A DNA stretch of 64,000 nucleotides from a phage, in the sequence record PZ445517.1; one strand, given 5' to 3'. The position numbers and the translations under genes were made by a program. Shown in pieces: positions 27,815-59,454 of this stretch. Position 1 is the first letter of the stretch. Every line of letters begins with the position of its first letter. The notes beneath the pieces were generated by a model. The model had not been told where the DNA came from, searched no databases, and saw nothing but the letters and a program-made list of their open reading frames with translations.

Positions 27815-28023
27815 TTCGGTTTACCTTCTTTAACGAAATCAGGATAAGGATAAAATCCTGAATAAAATCCTTCACCTTTATGATTGATGCATCCTTTATT
27901 AGAACAATAGCACCAATAATCGAAATCACAAGCCATTTCATCGTTGCATAAAGCAAAAACAACCGGCCACTTACACTTTTCACAGTGGGCATTTTTAAGA
28001 ATACTAGTTTGGCTCATAACCAT
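27811..28023 (-). CDS. cysteine-rich small protein
   Basis: track start is TTG; trimmed to ATG (MVMSQTS...); 10 Cys in 70 aa. Confidence 0.5.
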   Translation of the reverse strand: MVMSQTSILKNAHCEKCKWPVVFALCNDEMACDFDYWCYCSNKGCINHKGEGFYSGFYPYPDFVKEGKPK

Positions 28024-28226
28024 GTAACCTTTAAGCAATATTCTTCTACATGTTGTTTACGACCTTTCTTATCAATAAAGGTATATTCAACGAATGTTCC
28101 AATGTAGTCTTTATCTACATCATGTGGACTATTAATTGGGCATTTAGTACGGCAAATGCGTTCCCATTGACGAATAATTACTGCTTTGTTTTTAGGATCA
28201 AACGGATGCGGGTAATGTACTTTCAT
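28014..28226 (-). CDS. hypothetical protein (70 aa)
   Basis: track ORF; ATG verified. Confidence 0.5.
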   Translation of the reverse strand: MKVHYPHPFDPKNKAVIIRQWERICRTKCPINSPHDVDKDYIGTFVEYTFIDKKGRKQHVEEYCLKVTWL

Positions 28227-28677
28227 AATCCACCACTATTAAATCAATATCAGGAGTAAACATGTCGATTAATTTAGAAACCTTATCCCAATCGCCGCCA
28301 GCAATACCACAACCTATGCGTGGAATGTAAATTACCGGTTTAAACAAAAGGGTTTCTGCCTGTAGATTTAATTCTATCATGCAGTTTACTAAAGCACCAT
28401 AATCAAGATTAGGACCCGGTTCGTATTGCGTATACAAATTATAGCATATACTAAATCCTGTGGGATTATGTTTAAAAACAATAGACATATCGCCTAATTT
28501 ATCACGAGAACCGTACTCGGTAGTGGTTTTATCTATTTCTAAAATTTTGGGATAGGCTCTTGCTAATTGACCCGCTACGCCAGAGCCCATTGTGTGGAAG
28601 CAATTGCACCCGTGCGCAATAATATTACCTTGAAGAAATAGGGCGACAATATCGCCCTTGATATATTTTACAATCAT
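28198..28677 (-). CDS. macro-domain protein (ADP-ribose binding/processing fold)
   Basis: 159 aa; N-terminal ...IAHGCNCFHTMGSGVAG... and C-terminal GCGIAGGDW glycine motifs typical of macro domains. Confidence 0.7.
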   Translation of the reverse strand: MIVKYIKGDIVALFLQGNIIAHGCNCFHTMGSGVAGQLARAYPKILEIDKTTTEYGSRDKLGDMSIVFKHNPTGFSICYNLYTQYEPGPNLDYGALVNCMIELNLQAETLLFKPVIYIPRIGCGIAGGDWDKVSKLIDMFTPDIDLIVVDYESTLPASV

Positions 28678-29021
28678 CTAGTACTCAATCCTCGATTATA
28701 AGAATCTACTAAACGGTCAACCATTGAATGACAAGCGGCTTTATCTTTCTCCTCCGCAACTGAGCATTCTAAGGTATTCCACTTTTTAGCATATCGTTTT
28801 AATAATGTATCGTTTTTGTATCTGCTTGATTTATCTCTTTCTCCGTCTTTATATGCATATATTAATTTCTGTGCAAATTCAGCTTGGCATGCTTTATTTT
28901 TCCCACAATAATCTGCCGCAGTGCGGTTTACATATTCTCTAATTTCCGTATATGATGTATCTGCTGACGCAGAAGCAGAAAATGAAATTAATCCTATACA
29001 TAAAACCAAAATTTTAGTCAT
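28674..29021 (-). CDS. secreted/periplasmic protein with signal peptide (115 aa)
   Basis: N-terminus MTKILVLCIGLISFSASASA. Confidence 0.5.
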   Translation of the reverse strand: MTKILVLCIGLISFSASASADTSYTEIREYVNRTAADYCGKNKACQAEFAQKLIYAYKDGERDKSSRYKNDTLLKRYAKKWNTLECSVAEEKDKAACHSMVDRLVDSYNRGLSTR

Positions 29022-29559
29022 TTACTATTTCCAAAAGTTTATTATTTTTAAGGTAGTTAGCCTTTTCTAGGACTTCAGAAGCATATTTAGAACCTGCTTT
29101 AACATTCCATCCCGAATTATAAGAGGATATTGCTTTTCTTATATCGCCCTTATGTATATTTAACCAATAAGAAAGTTCAATGTACGCCCAGGAAGCTGAA
29201 TTGGATCGTTTATTCAACATTCTTTTTATTTCAGCATCAGTCATATTATAACCAAGTTCCTTAACTCTCGCTCGCATAGTAGGCAAATAATTTTGGAACA
29301 TTCCATAAGCGTGATGCTTTGGTTTAGATTTTAAATTAACTCCGCCAGAGCTTTCTTGCCATAAAATGGCTGCCATTATATGACCTAATCCGCTCTTGTG
29401 GATATTTTTATGTGTTTTATATTTTCCATCCTTAGAAAATTGTTCCCCGAATTGATACGCGTAACGCATGTTATCGAGTTGGACATTACTGAAAGTATGC
29501 TCGGAGCTATGTGCCATCATTGAAATGGCCAATAGACCAGCGAGTAGTGCTTTTCTCAT
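29014..29559 (-). CDS. secreted lytic transglycosylase-like protein
   Basis: signal peptide MRKALLAGLLAISMMAHS; LWQESSGG...MFQ motif reminiscent of SLT/lysozyme-like domains. Confidence 0.55.
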   Translation of the reverse strand: MRKALLAGLLAISMMAHSSEHTFSNVQLDNMRYAYQFGEQFSKDGKYKTHKNIHKSGLGHIMAAILWQESSGGVNLKSKPKHHAYGMFQNYLPTMRARVKELGYNMTDAEIKRMLNKRSNSASWAYIELSYWLNIHKGDIRKAISSYNSGWNVKAGSKYASEVLEKANYLKNNKLLEIVND

Positions 29560-29566
29560 GCTTACC

Positions 29567-30028
29567 TCATTGAGTTTTAATTACTGCTTTAGAAGCCTTT
29601 CCTGGTAAACGACGACTGTTAATAATTGCCATCCTACATTGAAGTGACGGGTCTTTGAACTTCTCGTTAGGTTTACAAACTGTAAATCCAAGCCAAAGAT
29701 TTCCATCTGTGATTTCTAAACGTCCAGGACGATATTCAACCCCATCAATAAAATCCTCGTCAATGTCAGGACGCGGAGGCATACTCAGGAATTCATTAAC
29801 TTCTAAAACATGGTCTTTTATTTTATGGAATAATTCAAAAACATATGTCTCATCAATCTCCCGCTGAATTGCGCGATCAAGAAGATGCTGAGAATATTTT
29901 AGATGAAACGATGAGACCCCTGCTGCTTTTGATGCCTCACGAATCTCATTGTTAATTTGACGAAACTCCGACTCAAAGTGACGACGAAGCTTATTTCGAC
30001 GGATAAAAACTTCAGTGTTGATAGTCAT
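29567..30028 (-). CDS. regB: RegB site-specific endoribonuclease
   Basis: 153 aa; matches my recall of T4 RegB; ATG verified. Confidence 0.93.
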   Translation of the reverse strand: MTINTEVFIRRNKLRRHFESEFRQINNEIREASKAAGVSSFHLKYSQHLLDRAIQREIDETYVFELFHKIKDHVLEVNEFLSMPPRPDIDEDFIDGVEYRPGRLEITDGNLWLGFTVCKPNEKFKDPSLQCRMAIINSRRLPGKASKAVIKTQ

Positions 30029-30054
30029 GTTATTCTCCTCTTAACTGATAGAAA

Positions 30055-30088
30055 AATTATACCACAGTCAAGAGGAAAAGTAAACAGT
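30055..30088 (-). promoter_or_regulatory. T4-type early promoter upstream of regB
   Basis: minus strand GTTTACT - 17 nt - gTATAAT. Confidence 0.6.
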
Positions 30089-30366
30089 TATTCTTTAAAT
30101 CTAATCAATTTATTCATAGACTTTGAAACTTCTGCACGGACCTCATGTAGGTTTTTAAGTTGTTCAAGACGTTGCTCATAGTAAGCAATTTCATCTTCTT
30201 CGAGACAGTCCTGTGAATCTTCTTTAAGATAACGTGCATAGTCCTGGAAAGCTTTACGGACTACTTCCTGGAAGTCATCAAGACTTTGAATTTTCTTAGG
30301 AGCGGCAGATACACGACGAGGTGCAGTATAATACTCATAACCAAACCCTGCACTTAATTGAGCCAT
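30088..30366 (-). CDS. hypothetical protein
   Basis: track ORF begins with GTG; trimmed to ATG ([13 protein letters not shown]) overlapping the upstream stop (TAATG). Confidence 0.45.
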
Positions 30367-30632
30367 TAGTATTTTTCCTCTGGTTGGAACACTGCACGAC
30401 AAGCCCACATACTGGCTTCTTTGAGTTTCGTTTTAGCAATATTTAACTGATCGAGGCTTTCAGCATAATTCTTCGCGAGTTCATCATCTTCACACTTATC
30501 TAGTGCTTCCCAGAATTCATCATATAAAGCATCAAAGATAAGTCCTAAACGAACTTCAGCGTCTTTGATAGCATTCACTTTACCGATTTTCTCTTCAGTA
30601 TGCGGCTTATAACCTTTAATGTCTTCAATCAT
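30366..30632 (-). CDS. hypothetical protein
   Basis: trimmed to ATG at 30630-30632 ([11 protein letters not shown]) with GAGGA SD. Confidence 0.45.
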
Positions 30633-30846
30633 ATTTGACTTCCTCACCAGTACATAAATCATATTCAACTAAACGAATAGGTTCATGAATGCCATATCCC
30701 TGAACAGAAATTTCTGTCGTAGGATAAATTCCATCAATATCACCCATATTCCACGCTTCGTTAAATTGCTGTTCGCCTGAATTACTAAACCACTCGGCGA
30801 AAGCATTTAGCACATCTTTAGAACCTTCAATAATTATCTTTGCCAT
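30625..30846 (-). CDS. hypothetical protein (73 aa)
   Basis: ATG overlaps the stop of the GrcA-like gene (TAATG). Confidence 0.45.
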   Translation of the reverse strand: MAKIIIEGSKDVLNAFAEWFSNSGEQQFNEAWNMGDIDGIYPTTEISVQGYGIHEPIRLVEYDLCTGEEVKYD

Positions 30847-31208
30847 TACAAACTCTCGGTGAAGGTACGAGCGATAACGTCGCGCTGCTGTTCCGGAGTC
30901 AGAGAGTTAAAGCGAACTGCATAACCGGATACACGGATGGTCAGCTGCGGATATTTTTCCGGATGCTTAACTGCATCTTCCAGAGTTTCACGACGCAGAA
31001 CGTTAACGTTCAGATGTTGACCACCTTCAACTTTAACTGTAGGCTGTTGCTCAATTTCAATTTCACGGGCATGCAAACCGTAGAAAATTTCTGGGTCTAC
31101 AAAAGAGTCCTCTTTAAAGGTTTTAGAGACAATAATTCGTGCTTGAATACCATCTTCAAAATAAATAGTACCTTTATGTGTGCCTTCAAGAATTTGATAT
31201 GCTTTCAT
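30846..31208 (-). CDS. GrcA/YfiD-like autonomous glycyl-radical cofactor protein
   Basis: 120 aa; C-terminal glycyl-radical motif RVSGYAVRF; last ~60 codons match my recall of E. coli GrcA and use GC-rich host-like codons, unlike the AT-rich 5-prime half. Confidence 0.85.
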
Positions 31209-31215
31209 ATAAACC

Positions 31216-31596
31216 TCAATTAGAAAATAAATTTATCCAAGATTGTTCTTTAATTAAAAATGGCTCAGAATCATATGCCATTAAACTCTGTGTGATTAGT
31301 CCTTTAAAAGGCCCATCAATAAATTCCATGGTAAAATATGGAATTTTATTCATTAGCCGTGCATTAGGAGCAGTACATAAAACTCTGCACCCTTTGAATA
31401 CACCTTTTTGTAATTTGTATTGCTTGGGATAAAATTCGCTCAAAATGTTATTTTTTGCCAAAATTTCAAAATGATTCACCAATTTATTTTTAATAGTTTT
31501 TGGTGAAAAATAAAGATATTCGAAAAGCTGAGTGTCTGTCATCATTGCATTCCGATTACGAAAAACTGTGGACGAGTAATACCACCAATGCAACAT
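31216..31596 (-). CDS. hypothetical protein (126 aa or shorter)
   Basis: track ORF; true start probably an internal Met ([13 protein letters not shown]). Confidence 0.4.
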
Positions 31597-32129
31597 TTAA
31601 TATTACAGCAGCAGTGTACAGTGTCAATATGGACACTATAAATCTTATCCATATCAGGAGATTTGACAGGCTCATCAATTATATATAAAATTCGCGAAAG
31701 CTTTAAACCTCTGAACTTGCTTCCTTTATTACCTATAAAACTGCGCACAGAATCAGTAAATAAACGAAAACGTATATCATCATTAGAATAACGCGAAAAT
31801 TCCTTTTTAATGTTATTTGCAGAAATTTTAGCGTAAGCTGAAGTATTAGAAAGAACAATAACTGTTCCACCGTCATACAACCAATTAGCGGCAAAATTAG
31901 TTACTGCAGTTGATTTACCAGATTGACGTCCACCATCTAGTCGAAGTGTGCAATACTGCTTAAGTAAGTCTTCAAATGGCGGGATATATTCGTTTTTACA
32001 AATTTCTTCTACTCTAGCGTCAGAATGGTGTGTAAAAGCATTCATCAGGGATAGATAAGGACCAGTTAAAAATGTTCTCATTTTCTTCTCTCTAAATTTG
32101 GGCCATTCCATGGCGCATGAATTGTCCAT
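31542..32129 (-). CDS. P-loop kinase-like protein
   Basis: Walker A GGRQSGKST and YIIDEP Walker B-like motif; size typical of small nucleotide kinases; Cys-rich C-terminal tail may be read-through into next gene. Confidence 0.5.
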   Translation of the reverse strand: MDNSCAMEWPKFREKKMRTFLTGPYLSLMNAFTHHSDARVEEICKNEYIPPFEDLLKQYCTLRLDGGRQSGKSTAVTNFAANWLYDGGTVIVLSNTSAYAKISANNIKKEFSRYSNDDIRFRLFTDSVRSFIGNKGSKFRGLKLSRILYIIDEPVKSPDMDKIYSVHIDTVHCCCNIKCCIGGITRPQFFVIGMQ

Positions 32130-32234
32130 TTCTGTATTTACCCATTACCGCACTTGGGCTCGACCTTATTACAGGTTGGCGGGAATCCCTCACAGAATCA
32201 TGAGGTCCAGCTTGTTCCCATATTTCTTATTTGC

Positions 32235-32708
32235 TTATTTGAATGATTTAACGTACTGAATAGAACCTTTACTATTCACAAAGGCAATTTTACCATTTTT
32301 ATTATACATGGTAGCAGTACGCTGATAGCCATAAGTTTGTTTACCAGATTGATAACCAACTAATGCGAAATTATCTTCACCCATTTTATTCTGTTTAGCA
32401 CGAATACGTTCATGACCATGTGCCATAAGAACCTTAGCATCACCAGTTGCAATGGATCGACGAGTTTTTTCATCTTCAACTGTATTAACAAAGTCGTCAA
32501 ATGAATCAAATTTAGCATGAGATTTATTATACAGTTTTCCATCTACTGCATAATTATATCCTTGTACATCCATCTCAACTTCTGTACCATCATCCAATAC
32601 AGCAGTGATTTTCTGACCTTTTTTAAATTTCAAAAGATCAGTAAAAGATTCAGCAATAATTTGAGAATTAATAGCTGCTTCAGTAATAAATTCTTGATAT
32701 GTTTTCAT
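32235..32708 (-). CDS. ipII: internal head protein with N-terminal capsid-targeting sequence (ipII locus)
   Basis: starts MKTYQEFITEA, the conserved CTS; 157 aa. Confidence 0.65.
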   Translation of the reverse strand: MKTYQEFITEAAINSQIIAESFTDLLKFKKGQKITAVLDDGTEVEMDVQGYNYAVDGKLYNKSHAKFDSFDDFVNTVEDEKTRRSIATGDAKVLMAHGHERIRAKQNKMGEDNFALVGYQSGKQTYGYQRTATMYNKNGKIAFVNSKGSIQYVKSFK

Positions 32709-32749
32709 ATGTTTCCTTTAAATGTAAATAGGTCTGAGTATTAGCTTTA

Positions 32750-33331
32750 TTAAGAATTACCGCGGGCTGCATTAGCAACGGCGTAAGCGTACTGAACATT
32801 AGCGTCTTTAAACGTACCTTTAGAGGTATCTAGTTCTGCCTTAAAGCCGCCTTTAGTCATAACCTCGGCGAATTCTTTACGGAAAGCCATTGCATCAAGG
32901 CTTCTCCATGATGATTTGTGCTTGGCGAATTCAAGACCAGCGTAGTTGACAGCCTTAGCTAATTTATTATCAATAACCCATTTACCAGATTTAGGCACAA
33001 ACACCGGGCCTTTCTGTTTAGAGAATAGTTTTAAATTCCAGCGACGAAGGTCACCGTCAGCTTTAACAAAAGCTGCGTCCAAGTTACTAGCAACAACATC
33101 TTGAATATGACCAAATTTAAGCCCATCAACTTCAATATTTAAATCGGTACGCCAGCGAAGTCCTTCCCAAGCGAAGGCTTTAAAGTCGGAAGCCTTTGTA
33201 GCTAAGTACCGTTCAATAGGAGCTGTTTTAGGGTCAAAGCCGTTTCCCGATCGGTAGGTCCACTCATCTTTATTAATGCCTTTGGCCTTTACTACAGAAG
33301 CTTCGGCAATAAATTCTTGATAGGTTTTCAT
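32750..33331 (-). CDS. ipIII: internal head protein IPIII
   Basis: 193 aa; starts MKTYQEFIAEA; size matches T4 IPIII. Confidence 0.85.
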   Translation of the reverse strand: MKTYQEFIAEASVVKAKGINKDEWTYRSGNGFDPKTAPIERYLATKASDFKAFAWEGLRWRTDLNIEVDGLKFGHIQDVVASNLDAAFVKADGDLRRWNLKLFSKQKGPVFVPKSGKWVIDNKLAKAVNYAGLEFAKHKSSWRSLDAMAFRKEFAEVMTKGGFKAELDTSKGTFKDANVQYAYAVANAARGNS

Positions 33332-38000: not shown

Positions 38001-38076
38001 TGGTCGAGGCAGTAGGGATCGAACCTACGACCCAGGACTTAGAAGGTCCTTGCTCTTCCTTCTGAGCTATGCCTCG
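38001..38076 (-). tRNA. tRNA-Arg (anticodon UCU)
   Basis: manual cloverleaf: acceptor CGAGGCA/TGCCTCG, D-stem GCTC/GAGC, anticodon loop CT-TCT-AA, T-loop TTCGATC, encoded CCA. Confidence 0.85.
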
Positions 38077-38080
38077 GATT

Positions 38081-38155
38081 TGGCGGACGTGATAGGATTC
38101 GAACCTATAACCAATCGCTTAACAGGCGATCGCTCTGCCATTGAGCTACACATCC
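38081..38155 (-). tRNA. tRNA-Asn (anticodon GUU)
   Basis: acceptor GGATGTG/CACGTCC, anticodon stem ATCGC/GCGAT with loop CT-GTT-AA, T-loop TTCGAAT, encoded CCA. Confidence 0.8.
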
Positions 38156-38159
38156 AAAT

Positions 38160-38246
38160 TGGTGGGGAGTGATGGAGTCGAACCACCCGAGTCGCAATGA
38201 CAATGGATTTACAGTCCACACCGCTACCTCTACGGGATAACTCCCC
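38160..38246 (-). tRNA. tRNA-Tyr (anticodon GUA), class II long variable arm
   Basis: acceptor GGGGAGT/ACTCCCC, anticodon loop CT-GTA-AA, 15-nt variable arm, T-loop TTCGACT, encoded CCA. Confidence 0.75.
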
Positions 38247-38255
38247 AAATTAATT

Positions 38256-38330
38256 TGGTGGCCCTGGGTGGAATTGAACCACCATCTGGCGATTATGAGT
38301 CGCTTGCTTGAACCTTCCAGCTACAGGGCC
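38256..38330 (-). tRNA. tRNA with anticodon CAU (Ile2 lysidine-type or Met)
   Basis: acceptor GGCCCTG/CAGGGCC, anticodon loop CT-CAT-AA, T-loop TTCAATT, encoded CCA. Confidence 0.75.
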
Positions 38331-38339
38331 AAATTTTTC

Positions 38340-38822
38340 TTATTTTATGTAATATTTATTTAAAAACTTTCTAGCTTGAGTATGGCTAACATTTATAGCG
38401 TTTGCATAATTTTTAATAAAACCTCGTTCATCCATATTAAAATTTTCTAATATTTTTAATCGTCTAATTATCTCATCTTGGCTTAAGGTACTTGCATTAT
38501 TTTTAGAAATTTTTTCTAAAGACTGCACTGAGTGTTTTCGACCATTAAAATTAAAATTTTTAGGTTTTGGAGGAAATCTATCATTTAGTCTCGCATCTTT
38601 TGTATTTTGATTATTAGTTGCGCAATATATGTTATTTAATGAGTATGGTCCTTTATCACCAAAACGACACATACAGTATTCATGACCCTTTCTTCCACGC
38701 TTATCATAATTTCCTGTTGATTTCCACCAATTTAACCACTCATCAAAAGTTAAATTCCATTCAATGTTTCTACGTATAGCAGAATTCCGCTGAGAAATAT
38801 ATTTTGCATAATCTTCTTTCAT
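38340..38822 (-). CDS. hypothetical protein between the two tRNA subclusters, possible DNA-binding or endonuclease-like
   Basis: ATG at 38820-38822; Cys/His-containing N-terminal half (GHEYCMCRFGDKG) and helix-turn-helix-like C-terminus; no clear HNH or GIY-YIG signature. Confidence 0.5.
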   Translation of the reverse strand: MKEDYAKYISQRNSAIRRNIEWNLTFDEWLNWWKSTGNYDKRGRKGHEYCMCRFGDKGPYSLNNIYCATNNQNTKDARLNDRFPPKPKNFNFNGRKHSVQSLEKISKNNASTLSQDEIIRRLKILENFNMDERGFIKNYANAINVSHTQARKFLNKYYIK

Positions 38823-38869
38823 CACAAATTTCTCTACTTATTACATGCACTAAGCTAAATCAGCAAAAC

Positions 38870-38959
38870 TGGCGGAGGCGATAGGATTTGAACCTATGAG
38901 TCGCCGGAGCGACTGCCGGTTTTCAAGACCGGTGCATTAAACCACTCTGCCACGCCTCC
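38870..38959 (-). tRNA. tRNA-Ser (anticodon UGA), class II
   Basis: acceptor GGAGGCG/CGCCTCC, anticodon loop CT-TGA-AA, long variable arm, T-loop TTCAAAT, encoded CCA. Confidence 0.85.
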
Positions 38960-38961
38960 AG

Positions 38962-39035
38962 TCTCCATACAAGGATTTGAACCTTGGACCTCCTGATCCC
39001 AAATCAGGCGCTCTACCAAACTGAGCTACACGGAG
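38962..39035 (-). tRNA. tRNA-Pro (anticodon UGG)
   Basis: D-arm GCTCAGTTTGGTAGAGC, anticodon loop TT-TGG-GA, T-loop TTCAAAT; acceptor pairs with two G-U; CCA not encoded. Confidence 0.8.
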
Positions 39036-39045
39036 TAAATTAAAT

Positions 39046-39119
<74 letters not shown>

Positions 39120-39124
39120 AAATT

Positions 39125-39211
39125 TGGTGCGAGAAGTGGGACTCGAACCCACAAGGAAATCATTCCGCAGCATTTTAAGTGCTGTGCCTTTACCAATTTG
39201 ACCATTCTCGC
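39125..39211 (-). tRNA. tRNA-Leu (anticodon UAA), class II
   Basis: acceptor GCGAGAA/TTCTCGC, anticodon loop CT-TAA-AA, long variable arm, T-loop TTCGAGT, encoded CCA. Confidence 0.85.
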
Positions 39212-57248: not shown

Positions 57249-57907
57249 TGAGTTTACTTAATAATAAAGCGGGAGTTATTTCCCGCTTAGCAGATTTTCT
57301 TGGTTTTAGAACTAAGAAAAATGATATTTCGGTTATGAATAATCAGCCAGTAGGTGCTGTAACAATTTCACAAATAGCAAAAGGTTTTTATGACCCAAAT
57401 GTAGAATCTGCTATTAATGATGTTAGAAATATGGCAGAGCAACAAGTTGGAGCTGTATTAGTTAATATAAGCGGCGTATCTCCTACTGGTGTGCAGCAAA
57501 CAGACTATTGGTCATTTGAAGGAACTGTTACTGATACTTCAGCCAAACCGGGTGACCCAGTTATTGTTAACATGTTTGGTATTCCAGTTAAAGCTACTAA
57601 CGGAATGACTTCAATTGAATTTACCAGTGCCGTTAGAATAGCTCTACAGGAAATGGTTGCAAAATTTATTGCAATTGATTCATTTGAAGACCATCCTACA
57701 ATAGGAAATAAAATACAAGTTAAGTATTTAGATAACCAAGAACATATCTTAGAACAATACTCTGATAAAGGAATTACTTTCAAACAAGAAATAATTTCTC
57801 CTTCTAAACCTGGATACGGAACTTGGCAATTATTAGGTGCGCAAACTGTTACGCTAGATAGTCACACACAACCTACGGTATTTTATTATTTTGAGAGAAT
57901 AGCATGA
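57248..57907 (+). CDS. 11: gp11 baseplate wedge, short tail fibre connector
   Basis: ATG at 57248 gives 219 aa ([17 protein letters not shown]); track extension begins with TTG. Confidence 0.93.
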
Positions 57908-59454
57908 GTAACAATACATATCAGCACGTATCAAATGAATCAAAATATGTTAAATTCGATCCTACTGGATCGAATTTTCCTGACACTGTCACGACAGTGC
58001 AGTCTGCATTATCAAAAATAAGTAATATCGGCGTAAATGGTATTCCTGATGCAACTATGGAAGTTAAAGGAATAGCAATGATTGCGTCAGAGCAAGAAGT
58101 TTTAGATGGAACTAATAATTCTAAAATCGTTACGCCAGCTACATTAGCAACAAGATTACTATATCCAAATGCTACTGAAACTAAATATGGTTTAACGCGT
58201 TATTCAACAAATGAAGAAACATTAGAAGGCTCAGATAATAATTCATCAATAACGCCGCAAAAACTGAAATACCACACTGACGATGTGTTCCAAAATAGAT
58301 ATTCGTCTGAGTCATCAAACGGGGTTATTAAAATATCATCTACACCTGCAGCTTTAGCTGGAGTTGATGATACTACGGCGATGACTCCGCTAAAAACCCA
58401 AAAACTTGCAATAAAATTAATTTCACAAATAGCTCCTTCCGAAGATACTGCATCAGAATCTGTGAGAGGTGTAGTTCAATTATCTACTGTTGCGCAAACT
58501 CGTCAAGGAACTCTCCGCGAAGGATATGCAATTTCTCCGTATACCTTTATGAATTCTGTTGCAACACAAGAATATAAGGGTGTTATACGTTTAGGAACAC
58601 AATCGGAAATTAACAGTAATTTAGGAGATGTTGCAGTAACAGGTGAAACACTAAATGGTCGAGGAGCTACTGGTTCTATGCGTGGAGTAGTTAAATTAAC
58701 GACGCAAGCCGGTATTGCCCCTGAAGGTGATAGCTCTGGTGCATTAGCATGGAACGCAGATGTAATTAATACTCGTGGTGGACAAACTATTAACGGTTCT
58801 TTAAATTTAGACCATCTTACAGCAAACGGAATTTGGTCGCGCGGCGGAATGTGGAAAAATGGCGATCAACCTGTTGCCACTGAAAGATATGCGTCCGAAA
58901 GGATTCCAGTTGGAACTATTATGATGTTTGCAGGTGATTCAGCACCTCCAGGTTGGATTATGTGCCACGGCGGAACCGTGTCAGGAGATCAATATCCTGA
59001 TTATAGAAACGTAGTTGGAGGAAGATTTGGTGGGGATTGGAATAATCCAGGGATTCCTGATATGCGAGGTCTTTTCGTCAGAGGAGCTGGCACGGGCGGT
59101 CATATTTTAAATCAACGTGGACAAGATGGTTATGGGAAGGATAGACTTGGCGTAGGATGTGACGGAATGCATGTTGGTGGTGTTCAGGCACAACAAATGT
59201 CATACCATAAACATGCTGGTGGTTGGGGAGAATACCAAAGACATGAAGCTCCATTTGGCGCGTCAGTTTATCAAGGATATCTTGGAACTAGAAAATATTC
59301 CGACTGGGATAATGCTTCATACTTCACTAATGATGGATTTGAATTGGGTGGACCGAGAGATGCCCTTGGTACACTTAATCGTGAAGGATTAATTGGTTAT
59401 GAAACTAGACCATGGAATATATCATTAAACTATATTATTAAAGTTCATTACTAA
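57904..59454 (+). CDS. 12: gp12 short tail fibre
   Basis: 516 aa; Gly/Thr-rich repeats; C-terminal receptor-binding region. Confidence 0.95.

Follow-up and report, generated by a model that had tools for sequence, protein, structure and literature searches.

The window analysed here is a stretch of 64,000 nucleotides of phage DNA (PZ445517.1) in which one gene appears to consist of two kinds of sequence, a phage-like 5′ half and a host-like 3′ part. This locus raises the question whether the host-like part was copied from the grcA gene of the host and, if so, between which nucleotides, from which donor and how many times. A sequence-only reading of the window had recognized a GrcA-like glycyl-radical gene at 30846-31208 and suggested its gene conversion with host grcA. 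The open reading frame, the Pfam Gly_radical domain of its product and the match of the latter to the structure 6OWR confirm the identification of the gene. The features of the locus are the following.

30846..31208, minus strand: coding sequence of vs.6 (Y06I), GrcA-like autonomous glycyl-radical cofactor, 120 aa (list of open reading frames)
31032..31208, minus strand: phage-type 5′ half, gene nt 1-177, residues 1-59 (GC content and lack of a nucleotide match in E. coli)
30864..31031, minus strand: patch, gene nt 178-345, residues V60-T115; host origin supported by identity to grcA (167/168 nt)
30924..30926, minus strand: codon of Gly95 in the RVSGY motif, predicted radical site (translation and alignment to YfiD 6OWR)
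30846..30863, minus strand: phage-type tail, the final five codons (FTESL) and the stop codon (codon alignment)
31214..31217, minus strand: Shine-Dalgarno-like GAGG, 5 nt upstream of the vs.6 ATG, overlapping the vs.7 stop codon (direct reading)
30625..30846, minus strand: downstream gene vs.5, clade-specific flank; its start overlaps the vs.6 stop (list of open reading frames and T4 annotation)
31216..31596, minus strand: upstream gene vs.7, clade-specific flank (list of open reading frames and T4 annotation)

Identity of the gene and its product

The gene is 100% identical to that in the record of Escherichia phage T4_ev240, where its annotation reads autonomous glycyl radical cofactor, and 92-99% identical to its counterparts in ~650 records of Tequatrovirus and Mosigvirus. 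In the T4 reference the ortholog is vs.6 (NP_049730, protein Y06I), which is likewise flanked by vs.7 and vs.5. It is identical to the window gene at 354 of 363 nucleotides, the 9 differences leading to three residue replacements (Q54P, V60I and R73H in the T4 reference), and the surrounding region is 96.7% identical. The window gene is thus the T4-type vs.6/Y06I ortholog, and everything described below concerns the Y06I gene proper. The sequence-only reading had cited T4 Y06I as a known homologue with the role of a spare glycyl-radical domain; the role is indeed reported, but the window gene turns out to be the ortholog of Y06I itself and not a separate relative of it. The stop codon of vs.6 and the start codon of vs.5 overlap as TAATG, and the final codons of vs.6 overlap the ribosome-binding region of vs.5.

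The product carries the Pfam Gly_radical domain (PF01228) at residues 60-101 with a score of 67.2 bits against the cutoff of 22.2, and aligns with the NMR structure of E. coli YfiD (PDB 6OWR) over residues 22-120 with an E-value of 7e-42. The PDB match to pyruvate formate-lyase (PFL) is restricted to the last ~63 residues of the enzyme (697-759), and the 120-residue protein has no glycyl-radical-enzyme barrel. The NCBIfam GrcA equivalog model TIGR04365 (IPR011140) is matched by residues 20-120 (profile positions 25-126) with 154.9 bits, below the curated cutoff of 170, and this shortfall is explained by the diverged N-terminal half. Judged by sequence, the protein is clearly a GrcA homologue and, by the curated equivalog measure, a member of a diverged phage subfamily.

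The counterparts of Gly95 are Gly102 in GrcA and Gly734 in PflB (PMC8683613). In YfiD the disordered residues 1-60 help it to bind cleaved PFL, while residues 61-127 form a structured module with the fold of PFL 693-759, which carries the radical glycine and inserts into PFL (PMC8683613). Both YfiD and T4 Y06I are activated by PFL-activating enzyme and restore oxygen-cleaved PFL (Wagner et al. 2001, as reported in PMC8683613). The window protein would be a spare glycyl-radical part of the same kind as Y06I, the tested T4 protein differing from it at the three residues given above.

The host-like patch, its limits and its donor

A BLASTN search of 5,426 complete E. coli genomes gave a match of gene nt 178-363 to grcA in all of them with 96.8% identity, whereas nt 1-177 had no match in any. 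The codon alignment narrows this down considerably. Over nt 178-345 only one of 168 nucleotides differs from E. coli grcA, namely nt 195 (window position 31014; CAT in place of CAC). The near-identity expected by the earlier reading is therefore found, and it is far higher in the 3′ than in the 5′ half; the boundary placed near 31031 also proved exact. In the last five codons the protein (F-T-E-S-L) is still that of GrcA but all five codons differ synonymously from grcA, and the GAG AGT spelling within this tail is common to Slopekvirus and Pseudotevenvirus. The host-like stretch is thus a patch within the gene rather than a 3′ end added by fusion, so that the "host-like 3′ half" of the earlier reading holds as far as 30864 and fails for the phage-type tail. 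The tract extends from nt 178 to about nt 345-356 and ends before the stop codon, the 3′ end of identity to E. coli lying at nt 347, 350, 353 or 356 in different phages. Among the phages compared, the E. coli base at nt 178 occurs in that of the window alone, and in some sibling phages the 168-nt patch shows no difference from E. coli.

At the protein level residues 60-120 are identical to E. coli GrcA residues 67-127 (61 residues, the RVSGY motif among them), in agreement with the earlier reading that the last ~60 codons encode the GrcA C-terminus. The patch itself (V60-T115, corresponding to V67-T122 of GrcA) spans almost the whole structured glycyl-radical domain including Gly95.

Composition changes at the same boundary. 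The GC content of the 5′ half is 34.5%, equal to the window mean (34.7%), and that of the patch is 50.0%, which places it in the top 0.64% of all 168-nt windows and more than 3 standard deviations above their mean. This computation bears out the GC break along the gene as well as the description of the N-terminal half as diverged and AT-rich. The CTG/CGT/CCG-rich codons noted before are likewise concentrated in the patch (patch versus 5′ half: CTG 5 and 0, CGT 4 and 1, CGC 2 and 0, CCG 3 and 0). Non-optimal host codons, e.g. GTA, AAG, TAT and CAA, are also reproduced in it.

The best match among the 5,426 complete genomes, 96.8%, is the value expected with nt 195 mismatched, so that no complete E. 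coli genome appears to carry 195T. This base is present, together with 204A and 336T, in two metagenomic Escherichia-like grcA alleles. The other parts of the 64-kb window have no megablast match to any E. coli chromosome. The sole further match is that of the phage tRNA cluster, which is ~85% identical to tRNA arrays on plasmids of ~100-110 kb.

To find the donor, 81 bacterial grcA genes taken from a genome collection at species level were compared with the patch. Escherichia comes closest (98.8-100%), the next genera reaching at most about 91-92%. The phage relatives permit a further comparison, in which the window gene was aligned with E. coli grcA and a phage outgroup (Jiaodavirus, Slopekvirus or Pseudotevenvirus) and the informative sites were counted. 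Sites in nt 151-177 at which the window gene shares its base with only one of the two number 10-12 for the outgroup and 2 for E. coli; within the patch the corresponding numbers are 0-1 and 20-27. The informative sites switch from phage to host at nt 178.

The N-terminal half has its own history. Its 59 residues alone have no match in Pfam or NCBIfam, and in T-even phages the 5′ half is clade-specific (10 fixed differences). A profile of this half from T4-like phages aligned with that of the bacterial GrcA N-terminal half gives an hhalign probability of 89% (E = 2.2e-6, 48 columns, 31% identity). It is ~31% identical to bacterial GrcA, 7 residues shorter, and diverged from the disordered N-terminus of the latter. 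Since the two N-terminal halves are homologous, an existing phage homologue was overwritten, rather than a host fragment having been fused to an unrelated reading frame. This homology and the phage-type final five codons contradict a fusion in which an unrelated phage ORF received its 3′ end from the host, and that origin is rejected. The identity, the donor specificity and the homologous N-terminal half support the view that the patch arose by host-to-phage gene conversion from E. coli grcA, as the earlier reading had it.

Three other origins of the patch have to be weighed. Convergence under selection would require that constraint on the radical domain together with host-optimal codons recreated the host sequence. 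The domain does show extreme protein-level conservation across bacteria and phages, and grcA is highly expressed and its codon usage biased. A control is offered by Pseudotevenvirus (locus L109, leB and Nando), in which 56 of 56 residues (EGGQH to RTF) are those of E. coli GrcA and the nucleotides are only 84-85% identical. The same protein at ~85% nucleotide identity excludes protein-level selection as the cause. Moreover, the patch keeps non-optimal host codons, and its identity to the host starts and stops abruptly; on these three grounds convergent codon usage is rejected and we regard it as highly improbable. Transfer in the opposite direction, in which E. coli would have acquired the 3′ half of grcA from a T-even phage, deserves mention because exchange both ways has been proposed for cyanophage psbA (PMC1484495). 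However, it would leave a host-like patch of 50% GC within a phage of 35% GC. The 3′ half of E. coli grcA is 87-92% identical to that of other Enterobacteriaceae, in line with 81-89% for the 5′ half, and the phage sequences nest inside Escherichia. The host GC and codon usage of the patch and the ordinary divergence of the E. coli 3′ half set the direction from host to phage; phage-to-host transfer is rejected on the patch GC, this ordinary divergence and the nesting, and has very little to recommend it. Least credible of all is an artefact, i.e. host DNA in phage assemblies or consensus polishing with host reads. Assemblers can in fact join phage and host through such a repeat, since in one contig of metagenomic origin (L176, OCHD01000040.1) phage sequence is continuous, by way of the patch, with E. 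coli DNA from downstream of grcA. Yet the patch is present in ~640 independent phage records, including the 8-kb T4 record X04567; it lies in frame within a phage gene, has phage-specific flanks and in many phages carries private variants, and for these reasons an assembly artefact is rejected.

Probable recurrence of the conversion among T-even phages

Essentially all records of Tequatrovirus and Mosigvirus carry the patch, ~640 of them with at least 95% identity to E. coli. Compared with the E. coli 168-nt patch, 391 phage records are at least 99% identical (many of them 100%, including T2) and 252 are 95-99% identical, while the 5′ halves in the same phage set range down to 88% identity. 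Recurrence was examined on a sample of 19 genes with full sequences and on the database identity bands. In the 19 genes the 5′ half, vs.7 and vs.5 define two clades, T4-type and Mosigvirus-type. Synonymous divergence (dS) was obtained from protein-guided codon alignments, as the flanks contain indels. Between the clades it amounts to 0.4-1.1 in vs.7, 0.25-0.58 in the 5′ half of vs.6, 0-0.16 in the patch and 0.7-2.2 in vs.5. In the pair L096 and L101, for example, none of the 42 synonymous sites of the patch differ, compared with ~72 of 133 in the flanks (Fisher P 3e-12).

The fixed differences between the clades draw the borders of this island. There are 10 of them in gene nt 1-177, the last at nt 170; none in nt 178-357; and 14 in nt 358-423, the first at nt 360 (0 in the patch region versus 24 in the flanks; Fisher's test, P 1.3e-6). 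On both sides the limits of the low-divergence island coincide with those of phage-host homology, which is predicted by host templating and not by phage-phage exchange.

Patch variants point to more than one donor allele. In one phage, PD112, the patch contains 204A, 285A and 336T, and these are precisely the sites which separate the grcA of E. coli O157:H7 TR01 from the SK1144 allele; the grcA allele of the other phages differs from the TR01 allele at the same three patch sites. Three further differences, private to PD112, separate it from the closest E. coli allele found, which points to an unsampled donor. A scan of metagenomes for T-even vs.6 added five complete phage copies; most of what it found was bacterial grcA, which served as a source of host alleles. 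Six of the eight variants of Escherichia-like grcA alleles recur among the 25 synonymous phage-patch variants (126 possible; hypergeometric P 7.5e-4), with P 0.03 for transitions and P 0.02 for transversions taken by class. Some of the shared variants are transitions and could reflect recurrent mutation.

The dS island, the fixed differences, the shared variants, the end points and the PD112 haplotype, considered together, indicate at least two independent host-to-phage events at the patch, which extends the earlier proposal of a conversion to repeated conversions. Templating of the patch by the host is probably a continuing process. Against this stands the possibility of a single host-to-phage event in the T-even ancestor, followed by spread through phage-phage recombination in co-infection with no further role of the host. 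T-even phages recombine freely, all T-even-type records have the patch, and the variants 195T and 219C occur in both 5′ clades, which crossovers inside an identical patch could yield. Phage-phage exchange, however, gives no reason why the island should end within a few bases of the host-homology limits (nt 170 and nt 360). It also has to accommodate the three-site haplotype of PD112 from another E. coli allele, and several phages of both clades in which all 168 nt are those of present-day E. coli, with flanks at dS 0.5-2. We therefore consider a single event unlikely. Recombination between phages within the patch could certainly redistribute variants and may account for part of the pattern.

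Repeated templating by the host is thus preferred. Very probably vs.6 is an old phage grcA-like gene, an internal tract of ~170 bp of which has been overwritten more than once by the chromosomal grcA of Escherichia, and whose product is a spare part for PFL. The gene as a whole would go back to an ancient grcA-like copy carried by phages, and the tract would have been replaced by homologous recombination (gene conversion) with the chromosome. The overwriting would have been repeated in Tequatrovirus and Mosigvirus, where the flanks are strongly diverged and the tract is 97-100% identical to E. coli, and different phages hold haplotypes of different E. coli grcA alleles. T4 degrades the host DNA and uses hydroxymethyl-cytosine, so that host-to-phage recombination is expected to be rare. 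Unpatched relatives share with E. coli grcA exact runs of only 15-31 nt. Such runs may suffice for rare homologous exchange during infection, when fragments of host DNA and the phage recombination system are present together. Once in place, a perfect homology of 168 bp would make later exchanges with the host far more frequent, and this self-reinforcement would explain why the patch stays near the host sequence while the flanks drift. The patch would then evolve in concert with the host gene. The identity, the breakpoints, the direction, the low-divergence island and the several donor alleles are direct results of the comparison, and the biochemical function was established for T4 Y06I in the literature; the recombination machinery, these dynamics and any selective benefit are inferred.

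The limits of the tract fit such a scheme. Its 5′ limit would be set by the end of nucleotide homology between phage and host. At the 3′ side, conversion across the stop would change TAATGG to TAAGGC with loss of the vs.5 start codon, and phage-host homology is absent beyond the stop codon; both fit a 3′ limit just before it. As to function, the C-terminal glycyl-radical module of the 14-kDa product would be activated by the PFL-activating enzyme of the host and would replace the oxygen-cleaved C-terminus of host PFL. Fermentative metabolism would thereby be sustained in an infected cell that meets traces of oxygen.

Related systems and consequences

The gene and the biochemistry of its product have been described before; what appears to be new is the recurrent host-templated patch, a clean and quantifiable case of gene conversion from a host to a virulent phage in the best-studied group of phages. 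To our knowledge, since T4, the textbook virulent phage, destroys the DNA of its host and modifies its own, natural gene flow from the E. coli chromosome to T-even genomes is usually held to be negligible. A 168-bp block with 97-100% host identity in hundreds of phages, bearing signs that different host alleles have templated it repeatedly, is concrete evidence of such flow. In the literature on Y06I, vs.6 and grcA in T4-like phages no description of a host-identical tract or of its recurrence was found, and an earlier remark in the T4 genome review (PMC150520) is possible. There vs.6 figures either in a genome comparison, among the conserved ORFs and with its Gly_radical domain (PMC1524935), or as the Y06I that was tested biochemically.

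The closest known parallel is provided by the photosynthesis genes psbA and psbD of cyanophages. Like vs.6, they are auxiliary metabolic genes of T4-like phages with a homologue in the host, an intragenic mosaic and a break in composition. Zeidner et al. reportedly described intragenic recombination between host and phage in these genes in 2005. Patchy GC content and segments clustering with the host have been interpreted as an exchange of psbA/psbD segments between host and phage (Sullivan et al. 2006, PMC1484495). In vs.6, unlike psbA/psbD, there is one sharply bounded block of 168 bp that is 99-100% identical to a single host species, and the phages are strictly virulent coliphages which degrade host DNA. 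The direction from host to phage is clear, and there is a measurable island of near-zero synonymous divergence with donor-allele haplotypes.

GrcA-like genes with a lineage-specific N-terminal half and a conserved C-terminal half are also found in Jiaodavirus, Slopekvirus, Pseudotevenvirus, Karamvirus, T5-like Demerecviridae and in phages of Aeromonas and Vibrio. In the T4-like genomes among them, including the other T4-like genera, the gene lies between the same neighbours as vs.6. Unlike that of vs.6, the C-terminal halves in these phages reach no more than 72-90% identity with the bacterial grcA genes sampled. The exception is a subgroup of Jiaodavirus (ATCCa, phiKp_22 and L177), which reaches 94% identity to a Raoultella allele. 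Compared with their siblings among the Klebsiella Jiaodaviruses, ATCCa and L177 have 3 differences in the first 177 nt and 12-15 in the following 168 nt, and 10-11 of these 12-15 differences match the Raoultella grcA allele. Altogether 17 Klebsiella phage records are 90-95% identical to this allele (best 94.0%), the donor being approximated here by a Raoultella MAG. This subgroup probably has a host-derived tract of its own, which makes it a second case.

A broader reading, which we put forward tentatively, is that the vs.6 patch acts as a standing recombination interface between virulent T-even phages and E. coli, re-templated from whichever grcA alleles the phages meet, and that the same applies to the Klebsiella Jiaodaviruses with Klebsiella/Raoultella grcA. 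If this is true, re-templating would be frequent enough for the haplotype of the patch to record the recent host history of the phage, and the patch would be a natural and measurable reporter of gene flow from the host to lytic phages. In any case it offers a defined locus at which the rate, tract lengths and enzyme requirements of this exchange may be measured with marked alleles, and vs.6 illustrates how an auxiliary metabolic gene may evolve in concert with its counterpart in the host. The identity also has practical consequences. Host-prediction tools may over-interpret an exact nucleotide match between vs.6 and grcA, and the shared repeat can mislead metagenome assemblers into building phage-host chimeras, of which contig L176 looks like an example.

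The window and the T4 reference

The sequence of the window differs from that of the T4 reference (NC_000866), the two being 96.7% identical over window positions 28000-33000. The vs.6 gene of the window has a sole identical record, T4_ev240. At residues 54, 60 and 73 of Vs.6 the window encodes Q, V and R, and the T4 reference P54, I60 and H73, the last of which falls within the domain that is otherwise host-identical.

Phage-host junction in a metagenome contig

Contig L176 (OCHD01000040.1, 170,927 bp; locus 701-1754) carries, in this order, phage vs.7, a phage-type 5' half of vs.6, the patch and the E. coli DNA located 3' of grcA. The E. coli-side segment is 100% identical and comprises the grcA 3' UTR, the terminator and eamB. 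The passage from phage to E. coli sits ~1.7 kb from the contig end. Most likely the contig is an assembly chimera, joined via the 168-bp repeat that is common to phage and E. coli; it is possible that the same order of segments records a genuine phage-host recombinant molecule.

GrcA-like genes in Klebsiella phages, and three features of the window

A Jiaodavirus subgroup made up of L263 (Klebsiella phage ATCCa) and L177 owes most of its differences from sibling phages to the 3' half of the gene (nt 178-345). There a Raoultella grcA allele is matched at 10-11 of the 12-15 sites differing from siblings, which suggests that these Klebsiella phages carry a host-derived tract of independent origin.

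Three features of the window were also noted:

38001-39211, - strand: eight clustered tRNA genes (Arg, Asn, Tyr, Met, Ser, Pro, Gly, Leu)
58818-59103: another local peak in GC, reaching at least 50% over stretches of 168 nt, inside the ORF 57904-59454 (+)
30840-31223, + strand: 127-aa ORF antisense to vs.6

A part of the tRNA cluster, about 157 nt long (window ~38095-38251), is 83-85% identical to tRNA arrays carried by plasmids of ~100-110 kb in 255 E. coli genomes; no match to the cluster was found on any E. coli chromosome. The GC maximum lies in an ORF for a glycine-rich product of 516 aa and gave no megablast match in E. coli, and therefore was ruled out as a second host patch. The antisense ORF is known solely from a mechanical listing of ORFs, and there is no sign of its being a gene.

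GrcA-like genes beyond the T4-type phages

Some IMG/VR "viral" contigs (L166-L175, L124) bear full-length pflB-like genes or bacterial-type grcA, that of L124 being 91% identical to a Yersinia allele. These contigs may represent bacterial or prophage-flanking DNA, not phage genes.

GrcA-like spare-part genes are common across unrelated virulent phage groups, namely T5-like Demerecviridae (L014, L015, L138-L163), an Aeromonas phage (L013/L135) and phages of ~350 kb (L121-L123). Their N-terminal half is particular to each group, and their C-half shows 72-80% identity to bacterial grcA. In the T5-like phages the GrcA-like gene is adjoined by a tRNA-Met gene.
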